DNA of 64,000 bases from a virus, in IMG/VR virus record IMGVR_UViG_3300023110_001595, positions 11,783 to 75,782 of that record; one strand, given 5' to 3'. Each line of letters opens with the position of its first letter. Within the stretch, counting starts at the first letter, position 1. Position numbers and translations under genes: made by a program. Below are positions 954 through 36,497 of this stretch, piece by piece. Under the pieces are notes generated by a model, which saw only the letters and a program-made list of their open reading frames with translations, ran no database searches and was not told the DNA's origin.

Positions 954-1673
954 ATGAATATTAGATTCCAAATATTTGGATTACAAATTTTATCATATCT
1001 ATCAATCATACCTATGATTATTTTTGCAAGTTGGTGGCAATGGCTAATTGCTGTATTCTTGTACTTTGTGTTTAATGGATTAGGCATGATTATGACATAT
1101 CATCGATTGTTAACACACAGAAGTTTTACTTGTCCTAAATGGTTAGAATATATACTTGCTTTTGTTACAACTTTTAGTTTCACTGGTAGTGCCATTACTT
1201 GGATAGCAATACATAGAAAGCATCATAAATTTGCAGATACAGACAAAGATCCGCACAGTCCGGATCATTTAGGATTTTGGAGAGTGCAATTTTTTACTGC
1301 GTTTGCCGAAGTAGAAGGTAGATATGCTACAGATTTAATGCGTGATCGTTTTTACAAATGGCAGCACAAATATTACACAACAATTTGCTATGCAACAATT
1401 TTAGTATTTACATTTATAGATCCAATGTTGTTAATATACGGATTATTGTTTCCAGCAGCACTAACATTGTTTTTTGGAACCTTAGTATTAAGTTGGGCAC
1501 ACAAAGATTATAAACCTAGAACAGTTATTTGGTTGGCATTAATTACATTTGGTGATGCTTTCCACGATGTGCATCATGATTATCCTAACAAATATAGACT
1601 ACATAAATATGACCTGATTGGATGGATTATTGAAAAAGTATTCGTCAGAAATAAAACCACACCTGTGGTCTAA
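954..1673 (+). CDS. Membrane fatty-acid (delta-9-like) desaturase
   Basis: Three His boxes (HRLLTH, HRKHH followed by DKDPHSP, HDVHH) and hydrophobic transmembrane segments. Confidence 0.9.
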   Translation: MNIRFQIFGLQILSYLSIIPMIIFASWWQWLIAVFLYFVFNGLGMIMTYHRLLTHRSFTCPKWLEYILAFVTTFSFTGSAITWIAIHRKHHKFADTDKDPHSPDHLGFWRVQFFTAFAEVEGRYATDLMRDRFYKWQHKYYTTICYATILVFTFIDPMLLIYGLLFPAALTLFFGTLVLSWAHKDYKPRTVIWLALITFGDAFHDVHHDYPNKYRLHKYDLIGWIIEKVFVRNKTTPVV

Positions 1674-1712
1674 AGGATTAAATAAAGTTGGAGAAGTATA
1701 TTGGAGGTTAAA

Positions 1713-2426
1713 ATGTCTACAAGCTGGAAAGGACGCCACGAATTACCAGTCATTGCACGACTTGATTACAGATTTGACATCAAAAGACTCAAAGAAGAAC
1801 TAAATCAGTTTGCAGCAGATAAGATTTGGGACGGGCTAGGTAGCGATTATGCTCATATGTGTGAAACACATACAAAACTTCCAAAAATGTTTTTCAAAGA
1901 AGAAGAACTAGAGGAAGTTAATTGTGTTTGTGATTTAGATTGGAAAACGTCTAGTTATCAACAATTAAGTTTAACTGAGTTTGACGAATCGTATGATATT
2001 AGCCAACGCACAGAATTAAGTGGTAGTGCTTGGGATACAAGAGTAGCAAAACGTGATCCTAAAGCAGATGAACGCTGGTATAGAAAAGTTAAAGACGATG
2101 TGCCTTCGTATTTGCGTGAGGTTTTAGACACGTTTACAGGGTCGCACAGAACTCGATTTGCAAATTTAGCACCACATAGTGAAGTTAAGCCTCATATAGA
2201 CTATGACACACTTTATGGAATAAGACTACACATTGCATTAGAAACTAATGATAAATGTTTTAATGGCGGGTGGGATAAAGATGGCAAAGAATATAAAGAG
2301 CACATTCCTGCTGATGGTAGTGTTTGGATGGTTAATCCTGGGGTCAAACATTATGCAGTAAACGGAGGCAATACTCCACGCAATCATTTAATAATAAGTT
2401 TAGATAGTCAAAAGGTTCTTATGTGA
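1713..2426 (+). CDS. Asp/Asn beta-hydroxylase-like Fe(II)/2OG oxygenase
   Basis: HxD (PHIDYD), RLHIAL, distal H (KHYAVN) and R (PRNHLII). GGAGG RBS supports the ATG at 1713. Confidence 0.8.
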   Translation: MSTSWKGRHELPVIARLDYRFDIKRLKEELNQFAADKIWDGLGSDYAHMCETHTKLPKMFFKEEELEEVNCVCDLDWKTSSYQQLSLTEFDESYDISQRTELSGSAWDTRVAKRDPKADERWYRKVKDDVPSYLREVLDTFTGSHRTRFANLAPHSEVKPHIDYDTLYGIRLHIALETNDKCFNGGWDKDGKEYKEHIPADGSVWMVNPGVKHYAVNGGNTPRNHLIISLDSQKVLM

Positions 2427-2908
2427 AATACAAACATTATCATGTGATTGGTTTACAAAGAACTGGAACAAACTGGTTACACGCTACTGTAAAAGAAAAC
2501 TTTGAGGTAACACGCAAACAAACATTTTGGAAACATTTAACACCTTTGGGACAAAATCCTAATTATCACAATATACACGGACCTTTGGGTTCATTGCTAG
2601 AACTTGATCCAGATGTATTTTACATAGTAACCTGTAAAAATTTTGATGCATGGTGTCAATCTATAAAAAAACGTAGAGTAGATTTTTGGATATCTCATAA
2701 TTTTCCTAACAGTGAAGAAAAGAAAACAGAGGATATTTATTACGCTTGGGTCAAATGGAAAAATAATAATATAAACAAAAAAAATTTTTTCTATAAAAAT
2801 TATGAAGATTGGAATAAAAATTGGAAAACATATTTTTCGGAAATAGAAAAAATTACAGGTTGGCAAAAGAAATATGATAATTATATTACAATAAATAAAA
2901 GGTTTTAA
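2423..2908 (+). CDS. Sulfotransferase-like protein
   Basis: N-terminal PAPS-binding-loop-like motif GLQRTGTNWL, then WKH and NYEDW. Confidence 0.6.
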   Translation: MKYKHYHVIGLQRTGTNWLHATVKENFEVTRKQTFWKHLTPLGQNPNYHNIHGPLGSLLELDPDVFYIVTCKNFDAWCQSIKKRRVDFWISHNFPNSEEKKTEDIYYAWVKWKNNNINKKNFFYKNYEDWNKNWKTYFSEIEKITGWQKKYDNYITINKRF

Positions 2909-2910
2909 TA

Positions 2911-3501
2911 ATGTATGTAAAAGAAATTAATAATCCTATAATTCACGAAGTATTTGAAGCAATTAAAGGTGTATGGAATCTTGTGCAAAATGACAATCGT
3001 TTTCAAGGTAAGTACAAATATATGCATTATGCAGGATCTACAGAAGAAACTGTAGAAATTATTTACGATAAATTTCCTCTTTTACTTGATTTCAGAATGA
3101 AACTTGATTTAACGCCAGGTATTTTATTTTTATCTTATAATGATCCGTCAAAGCAACTTTATCAATGTGATCCCCATAACCATGATAAAGAAGGAAGTTT
3201 ATTTTTTCCTGTTGTACATAGTGAAGGAGCGGGCACAGCATTTTATAATCCTCCAGAAGATAAAATTTATGACGTAGATAGGATTGCTCCAGGTGGTATA
3301 GAATATACAATTCAACATTGCAATTGGTTTGAACCTGCTGAAGTGCATAATATGTCAACACCTCATATTATGAATACAAAAATACTTCATGGAGCATATG
3401 AACTTATACCAGATTACCCCGATAATCATTATAGAGTAGCTTGTAATTGGCAGTCAAACATATCGTTTAACGAAATAGATAGAATTTTACATGATACCTA
3501 A
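2911..3501 (+). CDS. Putative Fe(II)/2OG oxygenase-fold protein
   Basis: PHNHD..SLFFPV..GTAFY..MNTKILHGA..RVACNW pattern, consistent with a jelly-roll oxygenase. Confidence 0.55.
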   Translation: MYVKEINNPIIHEVFEAIKGVWNLVQNDNRFQGKYKYMHYAGSTEETVEIIYDKFPLLLDFRMKLDLTPGILFLSYNDPSKQLYQCDPHNHDKEGSLFFPVVHSEGAGTAFYNPPEDKIYDVDRIAPGGIEYTIQHCNWFEPAEVHNMSTPHIMNTKILHGAYELIPDYPDNHYRVACNWQSNISFNEIDRILHDT

Positions 3502-4288
3502 TGTTCTTCATAATGTCTGGATAGGTGAAAAAATACCTACTTTTAATTTTACATTAAGTTGGCGTGATGCTATGCCAAACTTTAGAATTATTAATTGGCG
3601 TGACGAAAACATCGAATCAGAATTTAAAAACGACAAAACTTATAGGTATTTAAAGAAACACTATGGTCCAACTATGATTTCAGATTATATTAGGTTATGT
3701 ATTTTAAAAAAATATGGAGGAGTGTATGCAGATTTAGATGTTATGTTTTTAAAAGATATAAAAAATTTTTTGAATACTCCTGCTTTTTGCACCTATCAAT
3801 TTCCGCATATACCGGAGAACAAAAAACTAAAAAAAACACCAACAGGTTTGAGTTTGAGAGATTGCGTAAAGAACTTTGTAAATGTTTATAATTTTTACAA
3901 TACAGACATATATCTTTGTAATAATTTAATAGGCAGTGAACCAGGCGGACAATTTATAAATGAAATGTTAGATGCTTTTTTAGAACAATTAGATTTGCCT
4001 GTAGATAAAAGATTTAGTTATGTAGATTATGGTAATGGACCTATGCTAACAACATATGTTGCAAAAAAATTCTGCGATGTTAATGGATATACCGAACATA
4101 GAGAACAGGTATCGATTTATCAAAGCGATATATTTCATCCTACAAACTATATACAATATAAAGATGCAAACGTAAAAAGACAATTGAAAAACACATTAAA
4201 AGAACAAATTTTAAAAGCAAAACAATCAAATAGTTATGCATTGCATATCCAAGGATCAGAAGAAGTAGATTTATATCTAGAAGGTTAA
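3491..4288 (+). CDS. DXD glycosyltransferase (GT32/Och1-like)
   Basis: IPNVLHNVWIG, SDYIRLCILKKYGGVYADLDV and GPMLTT motifs. Confidence 0.85.
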   Translation: MIPNVLHNVWIGEKIPTFNFTLSWRDAMPNFRIINWRDENIESEFKNDKTYRYLKKHYGPTMISDYIRLCILKKYGGVYADLDVMFLKDIKNFLNTPAFCTYQFPHIPENKKLKKTPTGLSLRDCVKNFVNVYNFYNTDIYLCNNLIGSEPGGQFINEMLDAFLEQLDLPVDKRFSYVDYGNGPMLTTYVAKKFCDVNGYTEHREQVSIYQSDIFHPTNYIQYKDANVKRQLKNTLKEQILKAKQSNSYALHIQGSEEVDLYLEG

Positions 4289-4291
4289 AAA

Positions 4292-5053
4292 ATGTTAAAA
4301 ACTTTTCATCAAAAACTATTATTTTTACAATCAGTGCTTTATATAACAAGCATTATTGGTTTGATATTTTATTGGGATCCTATATGGCTGCTGTTATCTG
4401 TGTTTGGAAAATATATATTTGCTAATTTAGGTTTAGAAATTGGTTATCATAGATTACTATCGCATAGAAGTTTTACTACAAGCAGAACAGTAGAAAACAT
4501 TTTAACATTCTTAGGAGTATATGGTGGTTTTGGTCCTAGTTTAACTTGGACGGCTAATCATAGAGTACATCATAAAAACAGTGATAGGGAAGGTGATCCT
4601 CATCCTGCTTCAGAAACTTGGAAAACATTTTTTTGGTTAAATGATAAAGTTCCAGTAAATCCTAGTGTAGTTAGAGATTTGCTACGAAATCCATTTCATA
4701 AATTTTTGCGTGATTGGTATTTTACAATTTGGTATTTAACATTAATAGTTGCATTTATTATAGATCCACGTATTGCAATTTATCTATTTGCTATTCCAGG
4801 AGCAACAGGACTTTTAAGTGGTGCAGCAATAAACATACTATGTCATAAATTTGGATACAGGAATTTTGAAACAAAAGATAAAAGCACAAATAATTGGTGG
4901 GTAAATCTTTATGCAACTTTTGGTGGAAGCGGATGGCATAACAATCATCATGCTAATCCTGGCAGTTATACTACAAAAGTCAAATGGTGGGAATGGGACT
5001 TAGATGGTTGGATTATTGAAAAGTTTTTGATGAAAAAGGAATCTTTAAAATGA
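4292..5053 (+). CDS. Second membrane fatty-acid (delta-9-like) desaturase
   Basis: HRLLSH, HRVHH..GDPHP, N..CHKFGYRNF..DKSTN, GWHNNHH and WWEWD motifs. Confidence 0.92.
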   Translation: MLKTFHQKLLFLQSVLYITSIIGLIFYWDPIWLLLSVFGKYIFANLGLEIGYHRLLSHRSFTTSRTVENILTFLGVYGGFGPSLTWTANHRVHHKNSDREGDPHPASETWKTFFWLNDKVPVNPSVVRDLLRNPFHKFLRDWYFTIWYLTLIVAFIIDPRIAIYLFAIPGATGLLSGAAINILCHKFGYRNFETKDKSTNNWWVNLYATFGGSGWHNNHHANPGSYTTKVKWWEWDLDGWIIEKFLMKKESLK

Positions 5054-6246
5054 TAATTATGTTAGATAAAGATGATCCTAAAATTACTAAATTTAGAGAA
5101 AAAATATTTGAAGAAGATTTAAATTTGCCTTTAAGTTATATGAATTATGGCTTAAACAAATTAAAAAGAATAACAGACAATAAACTAAGCGAAGAAGAAT
5201 ATCAAAATGCATTTAAAGCATCTAATGTAAAATGGAACGATGAAAAAATAGATAAAGTATGGTTAATGCCTAATGTTGCAATTAGTGCTGCATACGAAAT
5301 TGATAATGATACATATAGAGGTGGATATTTAACATATACACTTAAATCTAAAAGGTCAAAATTTAGAAGTTTAAATTTCAAAGAATTTGGGTTTTTAACA
5401 CATCAATGCATAAGAGCTTGCGAGCTAGGTAAAAAAGAATTAATATTAACTGTGTATGAGTATAACAGAAAAATGTCTGCACAAGTGCGGGCGTTAAAAC
5501 ACAAAGGCTATGCCGATGTAGCAGGAAATATCTTGCATCAAGAATTTGATTACAAAGGTATAAAAAGTCTTAATGGTGTAGATCAACATATTTTTAGTAT
5601 AGATTTTGAAAAACTATTTAAAAAATACGATCCATATCTTCTTGAAATGAAAAATGAGGAAACTTTACCTGTAAAAGCAAAATATCCTACACAACCAGAA
5701 AAATATCCTTATGTTGTAGATTTAGGATTATCTGTAGATGTAGATGTTCTACAAAAAGAATTTGATGATTTTGATAAAAAAGACAATTATATGCTAAAAC
5801 GCCTAAATGATTTTGTAATAAGTCCAAGTATAAACATTATTTTAATGACGTACTTAGGATTTCGAAGTAGTGTATATCAAGGTGTAAGTTTAAACAAACC
5901 AGGAAGTTTAGAATTAAAAGAGTCAGTGGGTTCTGCTACTAGAGATTTGTTAGATAAGTTTGATGATGTATGCAGGGTAAATTATATTACGACTCATAAA
6001 GGATGGAAAACAAAATCTCATAAAGATCACGAAGATTATACAACACAAGGATTTAGAATTATAATTCCATTTGCCGAAATGAAAATGACGTTTGAAAAAC
6101 GTGTTGAATATATGTTCAAACCAGGGAGAGCTTACTTTGTAAATGTTGCTGTTGAACACGTAGGCGAACACGGAAGTTTATTAAATACACGTACAGGAAT
6201 ACTTTTTAAAATGTGTAATGATAAAATGATTTGGGATAACGTATGA
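5050..6246 (+). CDS. Two-domain protein: GNAT-like N-terminus fused to an AspH-like Fe(II)/2OG oxygenase
   Basis: C-terminal KSHKDH..FRIIIP..GRAYFVNVAVEH..RTGILF. The GNAT-like call for the N-terminal half is weak. Confidence 0.55.
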   Translation: MIIMLDKDDPKITKFREKIFEEDLNLPLSYMNYGLNKLKRITDNKLSEEEYQNAFKASNVKWNDEKIDKVWLMPNVAISAAYEIDNDTYRGGYLTYTLKSKRSKFRSLNFKEFGFLTHQCIRACELGKKELILTVYEYNRKMSAQVRALKHKGYADVAGNILHQEFDYKGIKSLNGVDQHIFSIDFEKLFKKYDPYLLEMKNEETLPVKAKYPTQPEKYPYVVDLGLSVDVDVLQKEFDDFDKKDNYMLKRLNDFVISPSINIILMTYLGFRSSVYQGVSLNKPGSLELKESVGSATRDLLDKFDDVCRVNYITTHKGWKTKSHKDHEDYTTQGFRIIIPFAEMKMTFEKRVEYMFKPGRAYFVNVAVEHVGEHGSLLNTRTGILFKMCNDKMIWDNV

Positions 6247-7796
6247 GTCTATTTTTGTGTGTAATACCAAAGCACAGCGTAAATGTGCCGCCTTTGAGTC
6301 TTGGTTTTTTACAAGGGGCTTGTAAAAAACACGGAGTGAATGTACAAATACGTGATTTTAATTTTGACTTATGGCAAAAAACAATTTATACAGACAAATG
6401 GCACAGTATTTGGCTCGAGACAAATCAAACATTATTCAAAGGCGAAGAATTTAATAAGTTTTGTGAAGAAATGTATGACAATGAGATACATTCTTGGGCA
6501 AAAGAAATTGTTGCTACAGATCATACACATATTGGTATTAGTTGTTTTAGTCATAGAAGTTTGCCTACATTTAAAAAACTTGCCACAGCAGTTAGAAAAT
6601 TAGATCCTAAAAAAATTATTATTGTAGGTGGTGCTCCTATGACACAATATGGCAAACATATTTTAGAAATGGATCTTGCAGATTTTGTAGTTTTGAGTGA
6701 AGGTGAGGAAGTATTACCTAATATTGTTAAAGGAAAATACAAACCTGGTATTATAGAAACAAAACAAATTGACAATTTAGATAATCTAGAAATTCCAGAC
6801 TATACAGGTTTAGATATAACACAATACACAGGAGGTTCTCCTGTAGGTGATCAAGTAAGAGATGTAAAATATAAAAAGCGTAACGAACTAGCAATTATTG
6901 GTAGTAGAGGTTGTGTTAGAAAATGCACATTTTGTGATGTAGAAGCATATTGGCCTAAATTTCGTTGGCGTAGCGCACAAAACATATTTGACGAAATGAT
7001 GCACTACAAAGATACTTATAGTATTGATAGGTTTTTCTTTTATGATAGCTTAGTAAATGGTAACACAAAACAATTTGAAGAGTTACTTGATCTAATTATT
7101 GCTGCGGGTTCGCCATTTAAAGGAATGCAAGGACTTGCAATATTTAAAAGAATGCCTGAACGTATATTTAAAAAAATGCGAAAAGCAAGATGGCATAGCA
7201 TGATTATTGGAGTTGAAAGTTTTAGCCAAGAAGTGCGTGATCATATGCGTAAAAAATTCTCTAACAAAATAATGCATGAAAATTTAGAACATTACAAAAA
7301 ATATAAAATAAATTTAGTACTCTTAATGATTGTGGGTTATCCTGGCGAACTAGAAAAACATCATAAAGAAAATTATGAATGGATGAAAAATAACAGACAA
7401 TTTGCAGGTAATCCTATCAAACAAATCGAAGTTGGGACTACAATGTTAGTATTTCCTGGTTCTCCTGTGTTTTATGAAAATATGTTTGAATACTATGTAG
7501 ATGATAACGGAGATTGGGTAGTAACTAACGGAAAAGAAATAAACAATATGAAAATCCGAAACGCAAGACGTAAAGATTTGATAAAATGGGCTGAAGAATT
7601 TGGGTTAGGAACTAATAGTGTTTATGGCACTGGTGGACAACTAGTAGGTGATGTTGAAGATAGAGACATTGTAAATAAAATACATAAATTAGAACACAGC
7701 ACGGATCTAAAATTAGAAGATGAATATGTAAAACAAGTCTTAGGTTGGGAAAGTGATCCTAATCGTCAGACACATGAATTTTGGCAAATGTTATAA
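6243..7796 (+). CDS. Cobalamin-binding radical SAM enzyme (class B methylase-like)
   Basis: PPLSLGFL, IGIS, IIVGG and EGEE in a B12-binding domain; SRGCVRKCTFC; IGVESFS; MIVGYPGE. Confidence 0.9.
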   Translation: MSLFLCVIPKHSVNVPPLSLGFLQGACKKHGVNVQIRDFNFDLWQKTIYTDKWHSIWLETNQTLFKGEEFNKFCEEMYDNEIHSWAKEIVATDHTHIGISCFSHRSLPTFKKLATAVRKLDPKKIIIVGGAPMTQYGKHILEMDLADFVVLSEGEEVLPNIVKGKYKPGIIETKQIDNLDNLEIPDYTGLDITQYTGGSPVGDQVRDVKYKKRNELAIIGSRGCVRKCTFCDVEAYWPKFRWRSAQNIFDEMMHYKDTYSIDRFFFYDSLVNGNTKQFEELLDLIIAAGSPFKGMQGLAIFKRMPERIFKKMRKARWHSMIIGVESFSQEVRDHMRKKFSNKIMHENLEHYKKYKINLVLLMIVGYPGELEKHHKENYEWMKNNRQFAGNPIKQIEVGTTMLVFPGSPVFYENMFEYYVDDNGDWVVTNGKEINNMKIRNARRKDLIKWAEEFGLGTNSVYGTGGQLVGDVEDRDIVNKIHKLEHSTDLKLEDEYVKQVLGWESDPNRQTHEFWQML

Positions 7797-8903
7797 TTTT
7801 CTTTTTGGTATTTTACTATCAGCACTACTTACACAACTATCTGTTATACATGGCATAGCAGAATCAAAGAGTTTAAATCCTGTTTCTATATTGCCTAGTG
7901 GAACATCGTGACAACTGTACGAACGTTTAATACTTCCATCAGGTTCTCTAATTATAATTCCTTGATAGCCAGCATTACAACTCCAACCTTTGAACTTGTT
8001 AAAATTAAATGCATTAAATCTTTCTGCTTGATCCATATACCATGCTTTCCCATCTTTGTCTCTAAATTCAACTTGAAAATGCCAAGGCACACTTGCATCT
8101 GGTTTATGATATGCATCAGCAGGTATCTCAAACTTAGGACTAGGACGTCCTGACCATTTTCGTTTTACTTCTGTGTAGGCCCTTTGTGGCATTCCGTTCC
8201 AGAGTCGTTTGAGGTCTTCTTCTTTGTATCCGTCAACCACTCTTGACGCAGTAGGATCGGACTGTGGTTTGAGGGTAACGTTGATTCCTTGTTCGTGGAA
8301 GAAGAGTGCGTTTTCCCAGTCTCTCTCGAACCACTCAGGTACCATAACCATATTAATGGTAATCTGTACATCATGTTCTTGACACAGGATTAACTTGTCT
8401 GCAAAGTCCTGCATCTTCTCCTTTGTATCTAAATGTTCTGTGTGCAGACTTGCTGTTATACTTGCTCTATGGAATGGCTTTACACATTCTACATACTGTT
8501 CAAACCATTTCATAGGGCGTGAACAGTTTGATGTCATATGGACACTAGTATAGTTAGTGTTATCAACATCGTTGGCAAGATGCTCCAAAATATCCAAGTA
8601 ACCAGGATGGAAAGTAGGTTCCCCACCGCTAAGGCTAAAATGGAAACTATTAAATCTATTCTCACGTGCTTGCCTTTTTATCTCATCGATTGTATGAAGA
8701 CAGAGTTCTGTAGGTCTATGGTCTTTACGATCGCTACGGGCATAAGGCCAACAATAACTGCATCGGTAGTTACAGAATCTTCCAAGTAACCAAGATACTG
8801 TGAATATGTCACGATACAATAAAGTACGCTGACCAACGCTAACGATGTCATCAAACGGTATCTTAGTGAAGTCATAGTTACTCCATTTTAAATCTTCAGT
8901 CAT
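7791..8903 (-). CDS. Radical SAM enzyme with C-terminal Twitch-like Cys cluster (subfamily A)
   Basis: CNYRCSYC, SGGEPT, C-terminal FKGWSC..C..C..C. Confidence 0.9.
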   Translation of the reverse strand: MTEDLKWSNYDFTKIPFDDIVSVGQRTLLYRDIFTVSWLLGRFCNYRCSYCWPYARSDRKDHRPTELCLHTIDEIKRQARENRFNSFHFSLSGGEPTFHPGYLDILEHLANDVDNTNYTSVHMTSNCSRPMKWFEQYVECVKPFHRASITASLHTEHLDTKEKMQDFADKLILCQEHDVQITINMVMVPEWFERDWENALFFHEQGINVTLKPQSDPTASRVVDGYKEEDLKRLWNGMPQRAYTEVKRKWSGRPSPKFEIPADAYHKPDASVPWHFQVEFRDKDGKAWYMDQAERFNAFNFNKFKGWSCNAGYQGIIIREPDGSIKRSYSCHDVPLGNIETGFKLFDSAMPCITDSCVSSADSKIPKRKL

Positions 8904-8908: not shown

Positions 8909-8937
8909 ATTATACTCTATTCCTATATATTTGTCAA
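8909..8937 (-). promoter_or_regulatory. Consensus sigma70 promoter TTGACA-17-TATAAT, probably leaderless
   Basis: -35 at 8932-8937, -10 at 8909-8914, ATG only 5 nt downstream of the -10. Confidence 0.8.
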
Positions 8938-9590: not shown

Positions 9591-9607
9591 TATTTATTAT
9601 AAATATT
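9589..9607. promoter_or_regulatory. Palindromic back-to-back late promoters (AATATTTAT-T-ATAAATATT)
   Basis: Perfect 9-bp inverted repeat between divergent genes; reads ATAAATA on both strands. Confidence 0.6.
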
Positions 9608-28518: not shown

Positions 28519-28547
28519 ATTATATGAGATTTGTATTCTAATGTCAA
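28519..28547 (-). promoter_or_regulatory. Consensus sigma70 promoter TTGACA-17-TATAAT heading the main enzyme operon, probably leaderless
   Basis: -35 at 28542-28547, -10 at 28519-28524, ATG 6 nt downstream. Confidence 0.85.
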
Positions 28548-28567: not shown

Positions 28568-28584
28568 TTAGGACGGAGGACGTT

Positions 28585-30042
28585 ATGGCAGATTTTATAC
28601 CAGGTGAAGCATATAGATTAGATATCGTTGGAGCAGACGAATCAGTAATTGTAGATAGTTGGCAAGGACAAGTAAAAGCAGATGTTGTATCATCAAATGG
28701 ATTGATACAAGTTGATGTTTCAACAGGTAAACTTTATGGACCAATGGTCGGTAATATAGAAGATACCGAAGGTAATGTAGTTTTCAATTTATCAGCACAA
28801 GTTTTAAAATCCGATCTAGAAGGTAGCGTGTATGATACAAGCGGTCAAATCAAACTTATCGACGGTATGACTGCTAGAGTTATAGCACCTGTTTATGGTA
28901 ATGTTGTTGACAGCGAAGGTACAACTATTGTTGATACTGCAAATAAAACTATAACTGCAACTACGTTTACTGGCGATTTTTACGGAGATTTGCACGGTAA
29001 CATTACAAGTGACAGTGTTATATATGGTACATTTAGCGGCGACTTCAACGGTAACGCTTACGGTGAGTTTTTTGGCGACTTAGTTGGAGAGCACACGGGC
29101 GATGTTATTGGAGATTTAACTGGTAACGTTACCGGTAATGTAACAGGTAATGTAAATGGACATTTACTTGGTGCTAATTTGAATACAGCAGAAGGTGAAC
29201 CTCCTGAAGTAAAAATAACAAATTTAAACAACACAATCGAACATCCACAATATAGCTTTTACGGCGGCTTAGAACATCATATTGATCCTGATCCAGGTGC
29301 TGTTGCAAACGGTCCTATTGTTTATCTAGGTGATACTAGAGCAGATACTGCACTACGTGCTCATGTACATCATTATAACGGACAAGAGATTATCAAGTTA
29401 CATGATCCGGTTGATCCTACCAGCGAAACAGCACCTGCTACTATTAGAGGACATTTTGATGGAAACTTTATATACAGTGACGTAAATGGTGCACAGGATG
29501 CATTAACTGTTAGTGAACAAGGCACTGTGTTACACGCTGTAAACGGTGTTGTAACAATTGGTGGCTATATTACAGATGCAATAGATTGCGATATAAATAT
29601 TTTCTCAGATGCAATCACAGTGGAAACAAGTGCCGATGAAGAATTTTTAAATGTCAAAAACTACAATGGTACAGTAAATGCAAAAACTGCTATAGGAACA
29701 GATAATCCACTTGCAATTATTTCAGGTGAAGGTTACAATGGAACAAACTTTGTAACTGGTGGCTTGTTTGGTATCTATGCAGATGCAGCACCAACTGATA
29801 CTCATGTAGAAAGTAAATTTGTTGTTAGCTTACCGAAAGGAAACGACAATCACAGTCAAACAAATCCAAGACGTTTGAGCTTTGACGGTGACGGTGTATT
29901 GACAGTGCCTGTATTTAAAGCAAGAGGCACTACTTTTGCAGACAGAGATTCAATGACAGCAGAAGCTGGCATGATTATTTTTAATCAAAATACAAATAAA
30001 TTCCAAGGCTACACAGGTAGTTCTTGGGTTGACTTACACTAA
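28585..30042 (+). CDS. Fibre-like virion structural protein
   Basis: G(D/N)xxG tetrad repeats (GDFYGDLHG..GNVTGNVTGNVNG), acidic composition, and a C-terminal GMIIFNQNTNKFQGYTGSSW fibre module. Confidence 0.65.
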   Translation: MADFIPGEAYRLDIVGADESVIVDSWQGQVKADVVSSNGLIQVDVSTGKLYGPMVGNIEDTEGNVVFNLSAQVLKSDLEGSVYDTSGQIKLIDGMTARVIAPVYGNVVDSEGTTIVDTANKTITATTFTGDFYGDLHGNITSDSVIYGTFSGDFNGNAYGEFFGDLVGEHTGDVIGDLTGNVTGNVTGNVNGHLLGANLNTAEGEPPEVKITNLNNTIEHPQYSFYGGLEHHIDPDPGAVANGPIVYLGDTRADTALRAHVHHYNGQEIIKLHDPVDPTSETAPATIRGHFDGNFIYSDVNGAQDALTVSEQGTVLHAVNGVVTIGGYITDAIDCDINIFSDAITVETSADEEFLNVKNYNGTVNAKTAIGTDNPLAIISGEGYNGTNFVTGGLFGIYADAAPTDTHVESKFVVSLPKGNDNHSQTNPRRLSFDGDGVLTVPVFKARGTTFADRDSMTAEAGMIIFNQNTNKFQGYTGSSWVDLH

Positions 30043-30056
30043 ATTTATGTTATAAT
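30029..30056 (+). promoter_or_regulatory. Sigma70-type promoter TTGACT-16-(TGn)TATAAT
   Basis: -35 at 30029-30034, extended -10 ending at 30056, GGAGG RBS downstream. Confidence 0.65.
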
Positions 30057-30086: not shown

Positions 30087-31076
30087 ATGATCTATATTGA
30101 TGGAATAGAATATCTAGAAAGTGATAACGATCACGTAAGATCCGCAGTTATTAACTATCTTGAAAACTGGAATATTACAGTAACTACCAGCGGTACAACT
30201 GGTAATCCAAAAACATATCAACACAGTGCAGAACTAATGCGCAAAGTTGCAGAATACAATGCAGAATATTTTATGCTTGATTCAAACAGTAGTATGATGG
30301 CATTATACAATCCTAGAGGCATTGGTTTTACAAGTATGAGTTTGTATCCTTGTCATGTTGCAAACTGTGATACATTTATTGAGACAACAGTTGCAAATCT
30401 ACCAGATAGAATACGTGAAGTGCAGCCAACAAATATGTTGATACTTCCTAATGTTTGGAAAACTTGGCATAGACACAAAAAGTGGCAAAACTTGGATTTG
30501 AGCTGTATGAAGCAGATGCAAGTAGGCAGTGATATTACACCTACAGGACTTATGGAAGATTTGCGTTCAAAAGGTGCGCAACAGGTTAACACAGGTTACG
30601 GCAGCACAGAAGTACCTCCTATCATTATGAGTACAGAACGCCAAGACGTATATAAGTTAACCGATATTAATCCTAACATCGAATACAAGTTTGAGAAACA
30701 CGATGATGGCACAACTGAGTTTTGTTGTAAGTACAAAAATCAAACAGAATGGTGGAACAGTGGCGACCTAGTAGAGTTTACAGACACAGATGAGTTTGCA
30801 CTATCGGGACGTAGATTTAATGCATTCAAAATGGAAAACTGTGGTGACAGAGTTTATCCAGAACAAATCGAAAAAGTTGCTATTGAAAATGGTGCAAGTT
30901 TAGCACTATGTAGAAAAGTTGCACACGAATGTGTTGTGTATTACACAGGTGATTTGGATATTACTAAGTTTACAAAACAACATAAGTGCGCATACGAAAT
31001 CACAGCAAAAAAAGTAGACGAAATCAAAGTAGACGATAATCTGCGTAAGATTGATAGGACACAAGTTTTTGTATAG
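30087..31076 (+). CDS. Compact AMP-forming adenylation enzyme (ANL/acyl-CoA ligase family)
   Basis: TTSGTTGNPK, GYGSTE, SGD, GR..VYPEQIE and C-terminal RKIDR. Confidence 0.85.
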   Translation: MIYIDGIEYLESDNDHVRSAVINYLENWNITVTTSGTTGNPKTYQHSAELMRKVAEYNAEYFMLDSNSSMMALYNPRGIGFTSMSLYPCHVANCDTFIETTVANLPDRIREVQPTNMLILPNVWKTWHRHKKWQNLDLSCMKQMQVGSDITPTGLMEDLRSKGAQQVNTGYGSTEVPPIIMSTERQDVYKLTDINPNIEYKFEKHDDGTTEFCCKYKNQTEWWNSGDLVEFTDTDEFALSGRRFNAFKMENCGDRVYPEQIEKVAIENGASLALCRKVAHECVVYYTGDLDITKFTKQHKCAYEITAKKVDEIKVDDNLRKIDRTQVFV

Positions 31077-31683
31077 ACTAGAAGTTTACGACGGTACACA
31101 GGATTTAGAAGATTGGTACGAAGGTGCTGCTGCTAGAGGCTTTTACAACAACCATAACAAAACAGTGCTTATTGATTATATTGATAAGCACGAAGATGCT
31201 ACACTAATACTTTTATATTATAAAGACAGAGTAATAGGCACAACAATCACACACAGTTTGCGTCAACTAGGAATATTAGGTAAAGATGCACATCGTATTG
31301 CTGCACGTACAGCATTGCTTATTGAACGTGTGGATGACATACGTGGACACAAAGTACACAACAATGATCGCAGCCCAATGAATCATCACACAAGTCAAAT
31401 GCTAACACCTGCTTGTTTTTATTACTTAGGGCTAGACAAGCCTATGTATGTAAGCACAAACAACTTAGAGACAGCAAGCCAACGTAAAGTGCATAGAACT
31501 TGGGCAAAGATTATGCATAGACACAAATATCTTAAAGATCCTTTTGAACTAGAGTACAAAGGTGCATTTCAAACATTTTGGAAAGTAGATGTTGAACACT
31601 GGTTAAATGATTTGTCTAAAGTGCAATGGCCCGAATCAAAACAAGTGCTAGACGTATTTGCTGCACAACTCAAAAAAGTCTGA
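31051..31683 (+). CDS. Hypothetical protein, possibly GNAT-fold acyltransferase
   Basis: Coupled to the ANL gene; LILLYYKDRVIG..HRIAART strand pattern; weak assignment. Confidence 0.4.
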   Translation: MIGHKFLYRLEVYDGTQDLEDWYEGAAARGFYNNHNKTVLIDYIDKHEDATLILLYYKDRVIGTTITHSLRQLGILGKDAHRIAARTALLIERVDDIRGHKVHNNDRSPMNHHTSQMLTPACFYYLGLDKPMYVSTNNLETASQRKVHRTWAKIMHRHKYLKDPFELEYKGAFQTFWKVDVEHWLNDLSKVQWPESKQVLDVFAAQLKKV

Positions 31684-33021
31684 CATTTCTGGAAACACTT
31701 GTTTGTGATCAACTCCACGTCTGCGTCCTTGTTCTTTAAAGAAGTTGTGGAAATCTCTACGTCCTTGTATAACTTTTTCTAACGGATATTCTGTTGTATC
31801 CATGTAATCAACAACACGTCTAAACTTTTCATATTCTATAGTGCTAAATGCATCTTTGCGATTGTCATCTACATTTTCTTTTATAAACTGCAAATGGTCA
31901 CGCATATAAGTCATATAGTTGTTTGGCAGTATATTAATATCATATTGTAGAGGCTCTTTAAGATGTGGTGTATCAAAACCCAAACGTTGCCATCTGTGTG
32001 TTTCTACATCATTATACTTGGCACGCCATTCTAATATTTTTTCTAGTAGTGTGCGGAATGTTGTTACACTGAATATGTTAAACGTAATCATCAACACCAT
32101 AGGTGCTTCACAGTTACGCATAAAATAATCCAAGTTGCGTTCAAAAACTTCGATGTCTAATCCGTCACGTATGTATTCTGCACGTTTACCCCAAGTGTCA
32201 ATACTTGTAAACATTTTAAAGCGTCTAATCTTGTTGTTTGTTAACAGGTCATTTACACGGTTTGTAAACTTTTCTAACTGCTTTGGTTTGCCACCTAAGT
32301 TGCTGTTACAGTTTAATTCAAGTTCTGGCTTAGGGTCTGCGTCCAACATATCAAACAGTTTATATGTGCTTTTTTGTATTGTAGGCTCACCACCTGTAAT
32401 ACGCAATATGTGTAACTCTTTACTTAATTCTGGCCACCAGCGCCAAAATGCATCTAAATACGGATTGTTTTCTTCTTCAAATATTTGAAACCAATCAATG
32501 TCGCATCTATGGTTTTTTACGTTTGTATATGGGCCATGTTGTTTGATTTCTTGATAATATCTACTGCTGGCTTTTGGATGACAGTATCCACAACGGAAGT
32601 TACACTCATTACCAAAACTAACTTCTAAGTATTCTGGATTTACATCAAACTCTGCACCACCTTCTTTTACAGCGTTTAGTCTATGTTTAAAGAAGATAGT
32701 TTGATTACGCTGTTTTCTATCACTTACGTAATCTTTGCCAAGTGCTTCAATCTTCCAACAATAGTTACAACCAGTAGGTTGTTCGCCACGCATCATTGCA
32801 GCACGTTCTTGCTTCTTTTGCGCTGTGTTGTGTATTGCACTTGGATTTTCTAACAACGGTGCTGTGTCAATCTTATGAGGAGCAGGATGATAACAACTGT
32901 GTGTTTCACCTGTTTGGAAATATATATTGGCATGATACCATTTAGCAAAACAAAACGTTGGTGATATTTCTTGTGTTATACCATCAATGCGTTTAATTTC
33001 TTCGCTTTCGCTACGCTCCAT
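31648..33021 (-). CDS. Radical SAM enzyme with N-terminal Twitch domain (subfamily C)
   Basis: CFAKW..HSCYH..CNYC, CNFRCGYC and TGGEPT. Confidence 0.9.
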   Translation of the reverse strand: MERSESEEIKRIDGITQEISPTFCFAKWYHANIYFQTGETHSCYHPAPHKIDTAPLLENPSAIHNTAQKKQERAAMMRGEQPTGCNYCWKIEALGKDYVSDRKQRNQTIFFKHRLNAVKEGGAEFDVNPEYLEVSFGNECNFRCGYCHPKASSRYYQEIKQHGPYTNVKNHRCDIDWFQIFEEENNPYLDAFWRWWPELSKELHILRITGGEPTIQKSTYKLFDMLDADPKPELELNCNSNLGGKPKQLEKFTNRVNDLLTNNKIRRFKMFTSIDTWGKRAEYIRDGLDIEVFERNLDYFMRNCEAPMVLMITFNIFSVTTFRTLLEKILEWRAKYNDVETHRWQRLGFDTPHLKEPLQYDINILPNNYMTYMRDHLQFIKENVDDNRKDAFSTIEYEKFRRVVDYMDTTEYPLEKVIQGRRDFHNFFKEQGRRRGVDHKQVFPEMSDFFELCSKYV

Positions 33022-33947
33022 TATTGTTCTCTATCTAAAAATTTTCTACTGTTGTCTCTTACAGGATTTTGGTATACATTTTTAAAGAACATACTTTGTT
33101 GTGCGTTTAAAGGATCTTCAGCAATGGGTATATTTAATTCTTCAATTAATTTTTCGCCTAAATAATTAGTATCCAATTCCATGCTTTCTTCATCAAATTC
33201 ACCTTTTTGATCCCAATATTCATTAAGCCATTCAAAATCACGTACATTAACATAATCCCAATCTGTACACATAGTTTTGTACAAACCTTCTCTAGCACCG
33301 TATATAGCCCAACGTCCGTTTTCAACGTCTGCACCTACCATTAACCAAATATACAATCGGTGTAAGTTTTTCCAGTGATTACGTTTAAATCCTTCATAGT
33401 CAGGACGAACACCTTGATCTAATGCCATTTTAACGCCTTCACGGAAACCAGCACGCCACGCCTGATGAGGTGTAGCATTGTTATATATCATACTATATGT
33501 TCCGTTCATTTGTACATATTCAGTATCCCAACAAAAATCTACCTGTGCGTGTGGATTATCTTTTGGAGCATTTTCGTGTGTGCGCATATTTAAAACATGA
33601 CTCTTAGGCCAACATTTAATTCCGCCGTTTCCATACGCTAATCCGTTGATTATATTTTCAGCAGTCCAACTAATAACCTTATTAGTTAAATCAGTATCTT
33701 CATCAAAGTTTATAACCTGTGACAAAAAATCATCTCTAATTCTATTATCACCATCTACGGTAATAAATCTATCTGTTGTAGATTTTTCAGCAGCAGCTTT
33801 GTGTGCGCTATCACTACCTTTTACACCATGTACTCGTTCGGCCCAAGGAACCTTACTACATAAGTCTGCAAAATTTTGTTCTGCATTTGGTTCGTCATAT
33901 GACAAGTATATAATATCGTAATCAACAACTCTGAATGTGCTAGGCAT
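33021..33947 (-). CDS. GT-A-like glycosyltransferase, paralogue of 27478-28512
   Basis: YLSYDEPNAEQN..HGVKGSDSAHKAAA..FITVDGDN..YGNGGIK..AWRAGFREG. Confidence 0.65.
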   Translation of the reverse strand: MPSTFRVVDYDIIYLSYDEPNAEQNFADLCSKVPWAERVHGVKGSDSAHKAAAEKSTTDRFITVDGDNRIRDDFLSQVINFDEDTDLTNKVISWTAENIINGLAYGNGGIKCWPKSHVLNMRTHENAPKDNPHAQVDFCWDTEYVQMNGTYSMIYNNATPHQAWRAGFREGVKMALDQGVRPDYEGFKRNHWKNLHRLYIWLMVGADVENGRWAIYGAREGLYKTMCTDWDYVNVRDFEWLNEYWDQKGEFDEESMELDTNYLGEKLIEELNIPIAEDPLNAQQSMFFKNVYQNPVRDNSRKFLDREQ

Positions 33948-34488
33948 CAACTTCCTCTAGATAGTAAGAATCAAATCTACGTGTAGTATACACAGAAAAC
34001 GGTGTTCCGTCAAATTCAAAATCTTCTGAAAATGGCACAAAATTTCCATCTGTAAATTTTATAAGTCTATATAATACATTTGGATCATTCTTTTTTGTAA
34101 TGCTAAAATAATACTTTGAAAGATCTATGTTAATATTTTGATCTAACAATTCTGATTCAAATTTATCATCTAACATTATATGCCAACTTTTGTTTTTATT
34201 ATTTTTAGTTAGAATTACTTGTTTCTCTTTCGGAATAGCAGTGGGTATTTCATATAGAAAACTCCACATTAATTTATCCTCGTCTATTTGCTTTGTATTT
34301 TTTATACTGTATTTTTTCTCGATAAAATCAAATTCTACTTTGTGTTCAAGAAGACTTAATTTTCCTGTAATAAAATCTTCAACTTCTTCTATATCAACTT
34401 CTAAAAATTGAAATCTTTTGTCAGGCTGGTTGCTTATTTTGTAAATTGTTCCATCGTCTTCAAAACATACAAATCTTTTTACATTCAT
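33940..34488 (-). CDS. Hypothetical protein
   Basis: 182-aa ORF coupled to both neighbours. Confidence 0.7.
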   Translation of the reverse strand: MNVKRFVCFEDDGTIYKISNQPDKRFQFLEVDIEEVEDFITGKLSLLEHKVEFDFIEKKYSIKNTKQIDEDKLMWSFLYEIPTAIPKEKQVILTKNNKNKSWHIMLDDKFESELLDQNINIDLSKYYFSITKKNDPNVLYRLIKFTDGNFVPFSEDFEFDGTPFSVYTTRRFDSYYLEEVDA

Positions 34489-35336
34489 ATTCCTAAGACC
34501 TTTTCATATTTTTTAATTATGTCATTAGTAACAAAATCTTTTTCGGTGTAATGAAAGATTCCATTTTGTTGATAATTTCCAATTTTCAATTTTAGATCGT
34601 CGTCTAAATATACACCTACTCTGTCTTGCCATCTAACTGAAAAATTATCGTTCCAATTTTGACATTTTGGTTTCATATGCACAAAACTAGGATATTCACT
34701 TTTATTATTTGTAATCAAATGCGTATTATCTAGTAATAAACTTGCTATAGATGCTGTTAAATCCATACTTGGATTGTTTAAATGTTTTAGCTTGTTATTT
34801 ACTGTTTTATAAATTGATTGCCAATTATTTGTTATTAATTCAAGCCAGTCATTAAACTCGTGTGCTAAATCTGATTTTTTAAAATAATGAAAACCACTGT
34901 ATAAACTTGGAATATTGTTTAGGTAAAAATGGTTGTATCTATAATAGTTTTTATCAGGAATCACTTCTCCTCTATATGTTGTAACTTTGCTAGTATAAAA
35001 TAAATCGTAATTTTCTAAATAATCAAACCAAAAAGAAATGTCATCTAATACCAGCATATCTGTATCTATCACTGCTGTGTTTTCATATGGTATAGCGTGA
35101 TAAATTTTCCATCTATTACTAACTTTCCAATCTTCGTTTTCAGCGTGATCGCCCCAAGGAATTTCCACTATATGATCAAACACCTGCTTGTATTTTCGTG
35201 GCACTGGATCATTTGTAATTAAGCATACACTGCTATTTTCATTTGTAACTTTAATACTCATTGCAGCTAAGTATGCTTGACGCACGTAGTCAAAATTACT
35301 GTTTTGGGCAAGCATAGTAAAATTATTGGTTGTCAA
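34485..35336 (-). CDS. GT8-like glycosyltransferase
   Basis: YVRQAYLAAMSIK, PYENTAVIDTDML (DxD), YSGFHYFKKS and FVHMK. Confidence 0.7.
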   Translation of the reverse strand: MTTNNFTMLAQNSNFDYVRQAYLAAMSIKVTNENSSVCLITNDPVPRKYKQVFDHIVEIPWGDHAENEDWKVSNRWKIYHAIPYENTAVIDTDMLVLDDISFWFDYLENYDLFYTSKVTTYRGEVIPDKNYYRYNHFYLNNIPSLYSGFHYFKKSDLAHEFNDWLELITNNWQSIYKTVNNKLKHLNNPSMDLTASIASLLLDNTHLITNNKSEYPSFVHMKPKCQNWNDNFSVRWQDRVGVYLDDDLKLKIGNYQQNGIFHYTEKDFVTNDIIKKYEKVLGI

Positions 35337-36153
35337 TTATTCTCTCCAAGCTAAACTTATTCATTATATGACAATTACTGCCTTTGAGATTTACTGCTGT
35401 ATACTCACCAAAACGATTTGTTTTTTGTACAAGAATTTTTATTTCATCTTCAACTATATCAAGTAAAACATCTTTGTCAATAGCATAAAATTTCTTGCCT
35501 GGAAGTATACCCGCAAAGTCACCAGATTTGTATCCATTCATTATGTGTAGCGCAATGCTAAAAGCAAAATCATTTCTATATACAGTTGTACGGAATTGAT
35601 ACATACTTCTATAATGCATATAATTTTCTTTAATATGCTTTACTAAATCAAAAAACATTTTTGTTTGTTCTGATTTTTTAAAATAAAATACAGTAGCCCA
35701 ATAAAAATCTATGCTGGTATCACTAATACGTAAAAATTCAGATGTTCCTGTGTGTATACCTACGTGGATTGCATCCTTGTAAAGTAACAATTCCTTCTGT
35801 TGTAAAAAGCAATTATTTAAAATATCATTACTAATAACGTAATCAGTATCCATTACAATTGTTTCATCATAAGGAGTAAGGTAATATACGTCTGCCCTAT
35901 CGGTATTTAGAAAAGATGTTATCTTATTATATAAGTCACCGTCGTGATGTCTTTTTGTCGTATTATGATAATTTTTGCTAGTCGATTGAATTACAGTATC
36001 AAACAAATTATTACTATTATCATAGTCAGAGGTTGTAACAAGACTGACTGGTAAGTTCAAATACTTTTGTATTCTTTTTGCTAAAAATTCAGCTTGTTTT
36101 ATATAGTTTAGTGTACCGTTGTTGTTAGCAAATAACAAGACGCCTTTTGTCAT
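35323..36153 (-). CDS. GT8-like glycosyltransferase, paralogue of the adjacent gene
   Basis: PYDETIVMDTDY (DxD), WATVFYFKKS, RNDFAFSIA and HIMNK. Confidence 0.7.
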   Translation of the reverse strand: MTKGVLLFANNNGTLNYIKQAEFLAKRIQKYLNLPVSLVTTSDYDNSNNLFDTVIQSTSKNYHNTTKRHHDGDLYNKITSFLNTDRADVYYLTPYDETIVMDTDYVISNDILNNCFLQQKELLLYKDAIHVGIHTGTSEFLRISDTSIDFYWATVFYFKKSEQTKMFFDLVKHIKENYMHYRSMYQFRTTVYRNDFAFSIALHIMNGYKSGDFAGILPGKKFYAIDKDVLLDIVEDEIKILVQKTNRFGEYTAVNLKGSNCHIMNKFSLERIIDNQ

Positions 36154-36497
36154 AAATTTATAATACTTTCAACAGTTCTGTTTTTTTTCAATTTGTTATA
36201 TTCAACAAAATATTGGTTAGTTGCTTCAAAATATTTTGTGTATAATTCAGCACTAAAATTTGCAACATTATCTACTTCAATCGGTATACTGTTATCATCA
36301 ATCAAGATTGTTCCATCCTGTTCTAAAGTTACTAAACTTTGACAAAAACTTATAAGTTCTTGTGTAACTGTAAATTGTCCACCGTTATAGTAGTATACTA
36401 AATTTTCTTTATATTGCTCTCTTAACAAACGTTTTTGATTGTTTAGAGTAACCATATAGTTACTGTGGTCTAATGCTTTTTGAAGACGTTCGTCCAT
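36150..36497 (-). CDS. Hypothetical protein (115 aa)
   Basis: GGAGG RBS; first gene of the GT operon. Confidence 0.7.
   Translation of the reverse strand: MDERLQKALDHSNYMVTLNNQKRLLREQYKENLVYYYNGGQFTVTQELISFCQSLVTLEQDGTILIDDNSIPIEVDNVANFSAELYTKYFEATNQYFVEYNKLKKNRTVESIINL

Follow-up and report, generated by a model that had tools for sequence, protein, structure and literature searches.

Islands that combine fibre genes, glycosyltransferases (GTs) and radical S-adenosylmethionine (SAM) enzymes have been described in aquatic myoviruses. In pelagimyophages and cyanomyophages, the "host recognition clusters" (HRCs) hold fibres, GTs and radical SAM cassettes in variable islands (Zaragoza-Solas et al. 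2020, PMC7029224), and 12 radical SAM genes were noted in a T4-like genome of marine origin (Nishimura et al. 2017, PMC5332604); the islands were not dissected in these papers. The best precedent for a virion protein as acceptor comes from mycobacteriophages, in which, according to the account given in PMC12619734, glycosylation of the C-termini of capsid and tail-tube proteins was shown by mass spectrometry (Freeman et al. 2023, Cell Host Microbe). In the present study, a window of 64,000 nucleotides (bases 11783–75782 of the 75.8-kb linear IMG/VR record IMGVR_UViG_3300023110_001595, CheckV completeness 21%) was analyzed. At positions 954–36497 it carries an island of 39 genes beside fibre and baseplate genes, which probably builds and edits a glycoconjugate. 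Positions are those of the window, genes are named by their first coordinate, and strands are given as (+) or (−).

The island resembles the HRC of PMC7029224 in being a variable island of the structural region, located by a giant protein and fibres, with GTs and copy-variable radical SAM cassettes. Unlike the HRC, it occurs in another phage lineage, with a Rak2-type baseplate wedge and an estimated genome of about 360 kb. With the mycobacteriophage systems it would share the decoration of virion proteins by phage GTs. However, as those systems are summarized in the source cited above, they have few GTs, no radical SAM or PP-loop enzymes and actinobacterial hosts, and their product was detected on the protein, whereas the island is known from its genes alone. 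The "Moraphage" lineage (PMC12619734) was also considered and set aside, as it is a different lineage with four core GTs for which no radical SAM enzyme is mentioned.

The island is anchored by a conserved core operon. The neighbourhood of gene 35323 was compared in 80 loci, taken from 207 IMG/VR relatives, and most of them shared the order giant protein, 44180, three fibres, 37749, (36549), 36150, two GT8-like genes, 33940, 33021 and 31648. The core order holds down to approximately 47% identity, and 36150, 35323 and 34485 were kept in 80/80 loci. The conserved core consists of a promoter, 36150, the two GT8-like genes, 33940, the GT-A gene 33021 and the N-terminal-twitch radical SAM gene 31648, and in all 80 loci it abuts the fibre genes. 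The first gene (36150–36497, −) encodes a protein of 115 amino acids (aa), for which an Atlas look-up returned DUF4376 as the nearest named cluster (score 0.90), a weak lead to tail-fibre chaperones. It is followed on the same strand by the GT8-like genes 35323 (35323–36153) and 34485 (34485–35336), then by 33940 (33940–34488), whose product has two beta-rich domains and is not enzyme-like, and by 33021 (33021–33950) and 31648 (31648–33021). The sequence-only reading had proposed, as a check, looking among relatives for a conserved GT and radical SAM core tied to the tail genes, and such a core was found in the 80 loci and in one cultured phage.

That phage is the Ralstonia jumbo phage RsoM2USA (MG752970.1), the only one among 50,697 GenBank phage records in which the core was detected. 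Its ORF355–347 form a syntenic mini-version of the core, which runs from a fibre N-terminus and a 37749-like gene through 36150, GT8, GT8, ORF351, GT-A and N-twitch radical SAM genes to a further GT-A gene and a methyltransferase (MTase)-like gene. The identities to the island proteins were 30–46%, including 38% between 35323 and RsoM2USA_353, 45% between 33021 and RsoM2USA_350, and 35% between 31648 and RsoM2USA_349. All of these genes are annotated as hypothetical. The module is located downstream of the baseplate, giant-protein and structural genes, and ORF356 and ORF361 were identified as virion proteins by mass spectrometry (PMC8504454). Unlike the island, the RsoM2USA module contains one radical SAM gene (a second is elsewhere in the genome) and no PP-loop array, and its carrier is a soil phage of a betaproteobacterium.

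The island is tightly packed. Its coding fraction was 0.987, with 38 open reading frames (ORFs) of at least 80 aa and one conserved ORF of 74 aa, and stops and starts overlap between most of its genes. Only nine gaps were found, and the 74-aa ORF occupies the largest of them (203 nt). The fibre paralogues 38673, 40270 and 42129, the last with a Collar domain, stand immediately upstream of the block, and a fibre-like gene with Gly-x repeats (28585) is embedded in it on the opposite strand. Thus, the earlier description of about 35 consecutive overlapping genes directly downstream of the fibres, with one fibre-like gene inside, agrees with the positions. It had also been read as a single 35-kb supercluster, which does not hold, because the island comprises six or more transcription units, each with a predicted host-type promoter, and the core is conserved while the rest is variable.

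The promoters were predicted by a sigma-70 scan of 39 kb, in which sites with at least 11/12 matches to the consensus were taken as near-perfect. As the total number of sigma-70-like sites was at chance level, the weight rests on the near-perfect sites in gaps and on their conservation. Ten near-perfect sites were found, six of them in short intergenic gaps and in the correct orientation; nearly all intergenic gaps of the island hold such a site. These precede 954 (896–924, +; TTGACA-17-TATATT, TG-extended), 7791 (8909–8937, −; TTGACA-17-TATAAT, 12/12), 27478 (28519–28547, −; 12/12), 30087 (30029–30056, +), 36150 (36520–36548, −; TTGACA-17-TATACT, heading the core operon) and 36549 (37719–37747). 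A site of at least 11/12 was present within 100 nt upstream of the 36150 homologue in 57/79 relatives, compared with 0/79 in-gene controls; such sites also preceded 27478 in 11/14 relatives and 7791 in 15/34. No site of this quality was found before the fibre genes 38673 and 37749. Since the promoters are its own and conserved, the island would consist of autonomous operons rather than being expressed by read-through of the fibre operon. The T4-type late promoter motif TATAAATA occurred only five times in 64 kb, below chance; one copy (9598–9605, +) lies in the 20-nt divergent gap before 9611.

Five GTs are supported in the island, namely 3491, 27478, 33021, 34485 and 35323. The gene 27478 (27478–28512, −), a tandem GT-A-fold gene that heads the long operon and has 33021 as its paralogue, has more than 5,281 relatives, all labelled hypothetical and none with a Pfam domain. 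The AlphaFold2 model of its product (mean pLDDT 90.8) was compared with the PDB using Foldseek, and only GT-A glycosyltransferases were matched, with probability 1.0 and E-values from 5e-6; they included the chondroitin polymerase K4CP, SunS/ThuS, RmlT, WrtF and ArnC. Moreover, D174 and D176 of the DGD motif were invariant in 38 sequences of the family. The model therefore supports 27478 and 33021 as GT-A-fold glycosyltransferases. The products of 34485 and 35323 are paralogous (hhalign probability 98.9) with an invariant DTD. In the PDB, the profile of 34485 found no proteins other than glycogenins (GT8); the match was weak (E 0.008) and confined to the first 100 residues at the N-terminus, and Pfam gave none. 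The profiles of the GT-A family and of 35323 gave no matches to PDB sequences. The fifth enzyme, 3491 (3491–4288, +), is a GT32-type enzyme with a DXD sugar-binding region (PF04488, 56.1 bits; also Caps_synth and Gb3_synth). In the case of 33940 (AlphaFold2 pLDDT 86), Foldseek gave no match at E ≤ 0.001, and VIA-align returned only generic beta-sandwich folds (Z ≤ 5) and a weak match to the Mu tail-fibre chaperone (Z 3.5).

The radical SAM enzymes are the most abundant family. All 11 predicted by the sequence-only reading carry CxxxCxxC, and 11 such genes in 35 kb are far beyond chance. Eight exceeded the cut-off of the Pfam family PF04055; the three below it (12662, 22245 and 31648) were accepted because they are paralogous to strong members or are clear members of NF033640. 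One is the B12-binding enzyme 6243 (6243–7796, +; PF02310 and PF04055), which resembles class B methyltransferases and whose best NCBIfam matches were B12 radical SAM C- and P-methyltransferases, every one far below cut-off. Two paralogues form family C, namely 7791 (7791–8903, −; 57.2 bits), which marks the conserved far end of the island with 72–94% identity in relatives, and 13691 (13691–14827, −; 48.5 bits). Three form family A, with a C-terminal SPASM/twitch domain: 12662 (12662–13690, −; PF04055 and SPASM), 22245 (22245–23315, −; assigned by paralogy and NCBIfam/Pfam comparison) and 23312 (23312–24391, −; found in 73/80 loci). The remaining five are full-length members of NF033640 (N_Twi_rSAM), for which the curated NCBIfam cut-off is 170 bits; their scores of 188–423 bits were all above it. 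They are 14827 (14827–16140, −; 373.7 bits), 16140 (16140–17312, −; 239.7 bits), 18639 (18639–19994, −; 187.8 bits), 20802 (20802–22202, −; 422.9 bits) and the core gene 31648 (298.4 bits). In the NF033640 alignment, N-terminal Cys motifs are conserved, and the Cys-rich domain precedes the radical SAM core.

BtrN, NeoN, AprD4 and DesII are twitch radical SAM enzymes that modify sugars. The island enzymes are similar to them in combining a radical SAM core with one auxiliary Fe-S (twitch) domain, and the same sugar C-H chemistry is proposed here. Unlike BtrN-type enzymes, the NF033640 members have the twitch-like Cys motif N-terminal to the core, and no specific BtrN-type model was matched. A literature search on NF033640 found nothing, and we know of no characterized member. 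When the peptide maturase models of NCBIfam were compared with the island radical SAM enzymes, every score was far below cut-off.

The four QueC-like ATPases noticed earlier are likewise present, as all four paralogues (8943–9590, 11307–11957, 17816–18646 and 19964–20923, all −) have SGGADS and a C-terminal CxxCxxC. Their Pfam QueC matches are weak: 8943 scored 22.3 bits against a cut-off of 22 and also matched PP-loop, 11307 scored 15.8 bits, and 17816 and 19964, assigned by paralogy like 11307, had no match. The nearest Atlas clusters were all viral. In their SGGADS motif and zinc-type CxxCxxC motif they resemble QueC. Unlike QueC, they form a divergent set of four paralogous genes with radical SAM genes in between, and no FolE, QueD, QueE or TGT/DpdA was found in the island. 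Among the five relatives G001–G005, TGT was found in none and PTPS/QueD only in G001, approximately 120 kb from the island. A 7-deazaguanine pathway was rejected, as pathway partners are missing and the paralogues are far from the QueC models; their substrate is probably not 7-carboxy-7-deazaguanine. The ORFs 19964–20923 and 20802–22202 overlap by 122 nt (20802–20923), and the GTG start of the former has probably been set too far upstream.

The neighbourhood of 20802, the best conserved radical SAM gene of the array, was examined in the best 80 of its 206 IMG/VR relatives (83–96% identity). The recurring order was 33021, 27478, 26451, 23312, 22245, 20802, (19964, 18639, 17816), 13691, 17278, 16140, 14827 and, farther on, 7791, and the radical SAM and PP-loop genes of the array showed gains, losses and duplications. 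Each whole relative has 9–19 radical SAM genes, and an island with this number is a hallmark of the lineage. In the relative with 19 matches (G001, IMGVR_UViG_3300005941_000003, 245,963 bp), they fall within approximately 152–243 kb, most of them in a stretch of about 55 kb beside baseplate genes, and a canonical ThyA is located at the far edge of the island.

Cellular homologues give an indication of the substrate. In a sample of 401 Bacteroidota genomes, NF033640 members were found in four or five, usually in tandem; one of these genomes (G006) is a metagenome-assembled genome (MAG) with contigs of this same phage type, and the other four are G158, G290, G313 and G086. The neighbours were SGNH, an MTase-GT2 fusion and GT-C enzymes in G158; a B12 radical SAM enzyme, an MTase, a polysaccharide deacetylase, GT11, two GDSL enzymes and a carbamoyltransferase in G290; and a Maf-like/GT1 fusion and an MTase in G313. 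Thus, glycan clusters with the family mix of the phage island surround the NF033640 genes in three of the four cellular contexts. The fourth (G086; L178, C2:1208500–1228400) has two N-twitch radical SAM genes with five PhyH dioxygenases, a WelO5-like halogenase, an MTase, GDSL, a dehalogenase-like Fe-S protein and a protein secreted by the type IX secretion system with a phage-fibre S74 chaperone domain. Since cellular NF033640 genes lie among glycan genes, sugar-directed radical SAM chemistry is supported, and by analogy the island enzymes may act on a glycan, as had been proposed earlier.

As a whole, the locus is best explained as a modular island that builds and edits a glycoconjugate, with a virion protein as its likeliest acceptor, although we hold this full reading at slightly less than an even chance. 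In this scheme, the GT-A enzymes would add sugars stepwise from host nucleotide-sugars to an intracellular acceptor. The radical SAM enzymes would then edit unactivated sugar C-H positions by oxidation, epimerization, deoxygenation or C-methylation, the PP-loop enzymes may adenylate carboxyl or carbonyl groups for amidation, and the SGNH-like and methyltransferase-like enzymes may acylate and methylate. From the second promoter, the paralogous GT-A, the MTase-like protein, the 74-aa protein and the copy-variable array of radical SAM, PP-loop, SGNH-like and SDR-like (short-chain dehydrogenase/reductase) enzymes would be expressed. With a virion protein as acceptor, the particle would carry a variable, heavily edited glycan coat. 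No transmembrane segments were found in island proteins outside the desaturases, all island transferases are soluble, and no genes for sugar-nucleotide synthesis, lipid carriers, flippases or polymerases were recognized among the island family matches. As the transferases are soluble and no lipid-carrier or export genes were recognized, the acceptor should be cytoplasmic, either a protein or DNA, or else the membrane at its inner face. Among these, a virion protein encoded in the adjacent fibre/baseplate module is favoured because of the deeply conserved placement by the fibre and baseplate genes and because of the embedded fibre-like gene with its ANL/FeeM-like pair; this is the weakest step, and the assignment is tentative. 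It is also conceivable, though rather doubtful, that the marine jumbo clade and RsoM2USA coat their fibres or baseplate with a protein-linked glycan rewritten by N-twitch radical SAM and QueC-like amidating enzymes, and that copy-number turnover diversifies the glycan for host recognition or escape from defence.

Several points weigh against a decorated virion protein. The glycan and its acceptor are deduced from gene content, several family calls are sub-threshold, and radical SAM/SPASM enzymes act more often on peptides. The G086 context is dominated by PhyH/WelO5-type oxygenases and not by GTs. Moreover, the core enzymes retain 77–99% identity (91–99% for 31648) in loci where the fibres have only about 36–48%; the enzymes stay conserved while the fibres diverge, with no sign of co-diversification with the fibre tips. 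The enzyme operons have conserved sigma-70-type promoters and the fibre genes do not, so that co-expression with the fibres is not established, and early expression would fit the host surface or DNA as well. A remodelling of the host envelope is an unlikely explanation. Here the enzymes would act early, on the inner side of the membrane, on intermediates of lipopolysaccharide (LPS), capsule or lipids; the altered cell surface would block superinfection by competing phages or keep progeny from re-adsorbing to lysing cells. The conserved host-type promoter at the head of every enzyme operon would suit it, it is the reading given for the GT-rich HRC of pelagimyophages (PMC7029224), GT8 and GT32 include LPS and capsule enzymes, the left operon contains membrane desaturases and an Asp/Asn-hydroxylase-type enzyme, and one cellular NF033640 cluster has GT-C enzymes, which act outside the membrane. 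However, no membrane-anchored transferase, polyprenyl-phosphate transferase, flippase, polymerase or GT-C was recognized in the island, the lipid-like left operon is not conserved, and the deep and tight linkage to fibres, which includes a soil phage, would be superfluous for such a role. Soluble enzymes, a cytoplasmic target and early-type promoters would also accommodate a phage base decorated with an edited sugar or another group against restriction and nucleases. Phage GTs are reported to hypermodify DNA with diverse glycans (bioRxiv 10.1101/2023.12.21.572611), radical SAM enzymes are reported to act in thymidine hypermodification (PMC5889632, PMC8989533), and 7-deazaguanine pathways include QueC-like PP-loop enzymes. 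We nevertheless regard DNA as an improbable target. Neither the 75.8-kb record nor its relatives (up to 246 kb) yielded a base-activating or base-exchange enzyme, be it TGT/DpdA, Tet/JBP (PF01702, PF12851) or a hydroxymethylase-like gene; all these records are fragments, so that the absence of base-modifying genes is unproven. The only PF00303 match was the ThyA beside the island in G001; as this thymidylate synthase homologue is canonical, thymidine hypermodification was rejected. In addition, a QueD-like gene occurs in one relative only, far from the island, and DNA-modification genes do not usually hold a conserved place inside a tail module.

Modification of a peptide or protein without sugars, in the manner of peptides made by the ribosome and modified after translation (RiPPs), was weighed as well. 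A phage protein or small peptide, with the 74-aa product and a fibre protein as candidates, would then be cross-linked, epimerized, methylated or hydroxylated by the SPASM/twitch and B12 radical SAM enzymes, the hydroxylases and the PP-loop enzymes. In NCBIfam, families A and C and the B12 enzyme come closest to peptide maturases, although far below cut-off, the conserved 74-aa ORF within the long operon is Trp-rich, and in G086 five PhyH-type oxygenases, the WelO5-like halogenase and the MTase are next to the secreted S74-domain protein. Set against these points, Pfam reported no RRE/PqqD domain for island genes and no protease or exporter was detected in the island, one small conserved ORF would have to serve eleven radical SAM enzymes in a region that is 98.7% coding, four GTs dominate the conserved core, and glycan clusters make up three of the four cellular contexts; such a product is accordingly given little probability. 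A similarly small probability is given to the absence of any common product, with the island as a hypervariable dump of independent auxiliary genes beside the fibres. T4-like aquatic phages typically have hypervariable islands at this location (PMC7029224), several independent promoters are present, and the content is mosaic, as relatives lack or rearrange the left operon and a number of cassettes. Nevertheless, a core order conserved to 47% identity and in RsoM2USA, the start-to-stop gene overlaps, and the recurrence of the same mix (N-twitch radical SAM, GT, SGNH, MTase and B12 radical SAM) in bacterial clusters argue for a shared function.

The remaining genes of the island were assigned with varying support. 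Besides GT32 (3491), Pfam passes were obtained for two FA_desaturase proteins, one Asp/Arg hydroxylase, DUF6473 and an ANL fragment, while sulfotransferase, nitroreductase, SDR and one GDSL call were sub-threshold (E 0.02–0.13). The left operon (954–7796), which consists of desaturases, hydroxylase, GT32 and the B12 radical SAM gene, begins with a membrane di-iron enzyme of the FA_desaturase family with hydrophobic segments (954–1673, +; PF00487, 48.8 bits; 34% identity to its paralogue 4292). It is followed by an Asp/Asn beta-hydroxylase-type iron/2-oxoglutarate (Fe/2OG) cupin (1701–2426, +; PF05118, 35.2 bits; Asp/Arg hydroxylase by Pfam), a small sulfotransferase-like candidate (2423–2908, +; Sulfotransfer_3, E 0.033; P-loop-like QRTGTNW) and a cupin-like protein with an H-x-D-type motif (2911–3501, +). 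Beyond 3491 lie the second FA_desaturase-family gene (4292–5053, +; PF00487, 59.1 bits) and a 398-aa protein with a C-terminal H-x-D..H motif (5050–6246, +); neither 2911 nor 5050 had a family match. As this operon is mostly absent from relatives, the lipo part of the coat proposed earlier would be accessory cargo.

The stretch from the left operon to 27478 additionally contains a nitroreductase-like candidate (9611–10552, +; PF00881, E 0.043), an SGNH-like protein by motif (10541–11338, −; GTSHT ... DGYH; no family match), an SGNH/GDSL-like candidate (11950–12672, −; Lipase_GDSL_2, E 0.13; GCSYTDG) and a short SDR-like candidate (17278–17832, −; adh_short, E 0.017; YxxxK; 62–93% identity in relatives). 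It also contains a DUF6473 protein, SGNH-like by motif (24384–25130, −; PF20078, 31.7 bits; GCSNTYG, GISGGS, DxxH), and a 379-aa protein without a family match (25108–26247, −). The conserved 74-aa ORF (26240–26464, −) is Trp-rich, has no Cys and showed 74–95% identity in 78 related loci; a role of its product as a small subunit is conceivable, that of a modified peptide less so. The adjacent gene 26451 (26451–27521, −) encodes N-terminal helical repeats of about 22 aa and a C-terminal class-I methyltransferase-like domain assigned by motif; RsoM2USA (RsoM2USA_347) shares the latter but not the repeats. Four to five tandem repeats were counted at its N-terminus, with a consensus around EDLRKAVLENNIHSIFR. 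Between 27478 and the core, the fibre-like structural gene 28585 (28585–30042, +), with GxxGxxG repeats, forms a conserved cassette with a short ANL adenylating enzyme (30087–31076, +; PF00501, 49 bits; TSGTTGNPK, GYGSTE) and an FeeM/GNAT-like candidate (31051–31683, +; FeeM, E 0.033, sub-threshold).

Compared with the sequence-only reading, the two desaturases and the ANL enzyme were matched by Pfam, while other counts stood in part. Five of the five to six GT-like proteins are supported, and the sixth (25108) had no family match; of three SGNH-like proteins, 24384 was above cut-off as DUF6473, 11950 was sub-threshold and 10541 was assigned by motif. One of three Fe/2OG oxygenases (1701) was found by Pfam, and 2911 and 5050 have H-x-D-type motifs. 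The sulfotransferase, nitroreductase and SDR remain sub-threshold candidates (E 0.02–0.04), and the MTase-like domain of 26451 remains a motif call.

To the right, the island borders on structural genes (36549–44782, −), namely the Gly/Ser/Thr-rich paralogues 36549 and 37749, the fibres 38673, 40270 and 42129 (Collar), and 44180. Beyond them (44809–62571, −), a giant virion-type protein, a gp6-like baseplate wedge and a gp25-like protein follow the order of RsoM2USA ORF361–363 (PMC8504454). The giant protein (44809–58617, −) has 4,602 aa with CBM5/12 and FG-GAP repeats, lies between wedge and fibres, and is the positional equivalent of RsoM2USA ORF361 (2,541 aa). On the left flank, a subtilase with an inserted cupredoxin domain is accompanied by an Mtd_N fibre-like gene and a further Asp/Arg hydroxylase. 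The subtilase (S8, 797 aa; window 1–912, +; full gene L081:10301–12694) has a plastocyanin/azurin-type copper-binding domain as its insert.

The wedge (58620–62081) has about 35% identity to those of Rak2/PA5oct/Atu_ph07/SCTP-2-type jumbo myoviruses. Since related contigs of 85–246 kb had CheckV completeness of 23–67%, the genome was estimated at approximately 360 kb, and the island would belong to an uncultured marine jumbo myovirus of roughly this size. In a single-protein scan of bacterial genomes, just two MAG contigs were matched, both clearly of the same phage type. These contigs, with 75–83% identity to 20802, were binned under the labels Crocinitomicaceae (L164/G006) and Neisseriaceae (L165/G007), and the G006 MAG has several contigs of this kind, on which 15 NF033640 matches were counted. 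They are probably phage contigs and give only a weak hint to the host.

Compared with the HRC papers (PMC7029224, PMC5332604), the fold-based assignment of the two GT pairs, the core operon with its promoters, the N-twitch and PP-loop families and the RsoM2USA counterpart are new, as are the 9–19 radical SAM genes as a lineage trait and the association of NF033640 with bacterial glycan clusters. The clade is common in marine metagenomes, the core being present on more than 200 IMG/VR contigs, and over 5,000 relatives of the GT-A family are unannotated; RsoM2USA provides a cultured system that carries the core. If the virions are decorated, phage virion glycosylation would extend from mycobacteriophages to Gram-negative jumbo phages. 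If the proposal is true, it would reveal radical SAM chemistry on glycans that is also encoded, uncharacterized, in polysaccharide clusters of Bacteroidota, and it would represent the first radical SAM editing of a virion glycan and provide a function for NF033640 in bacterial glycan clusters.

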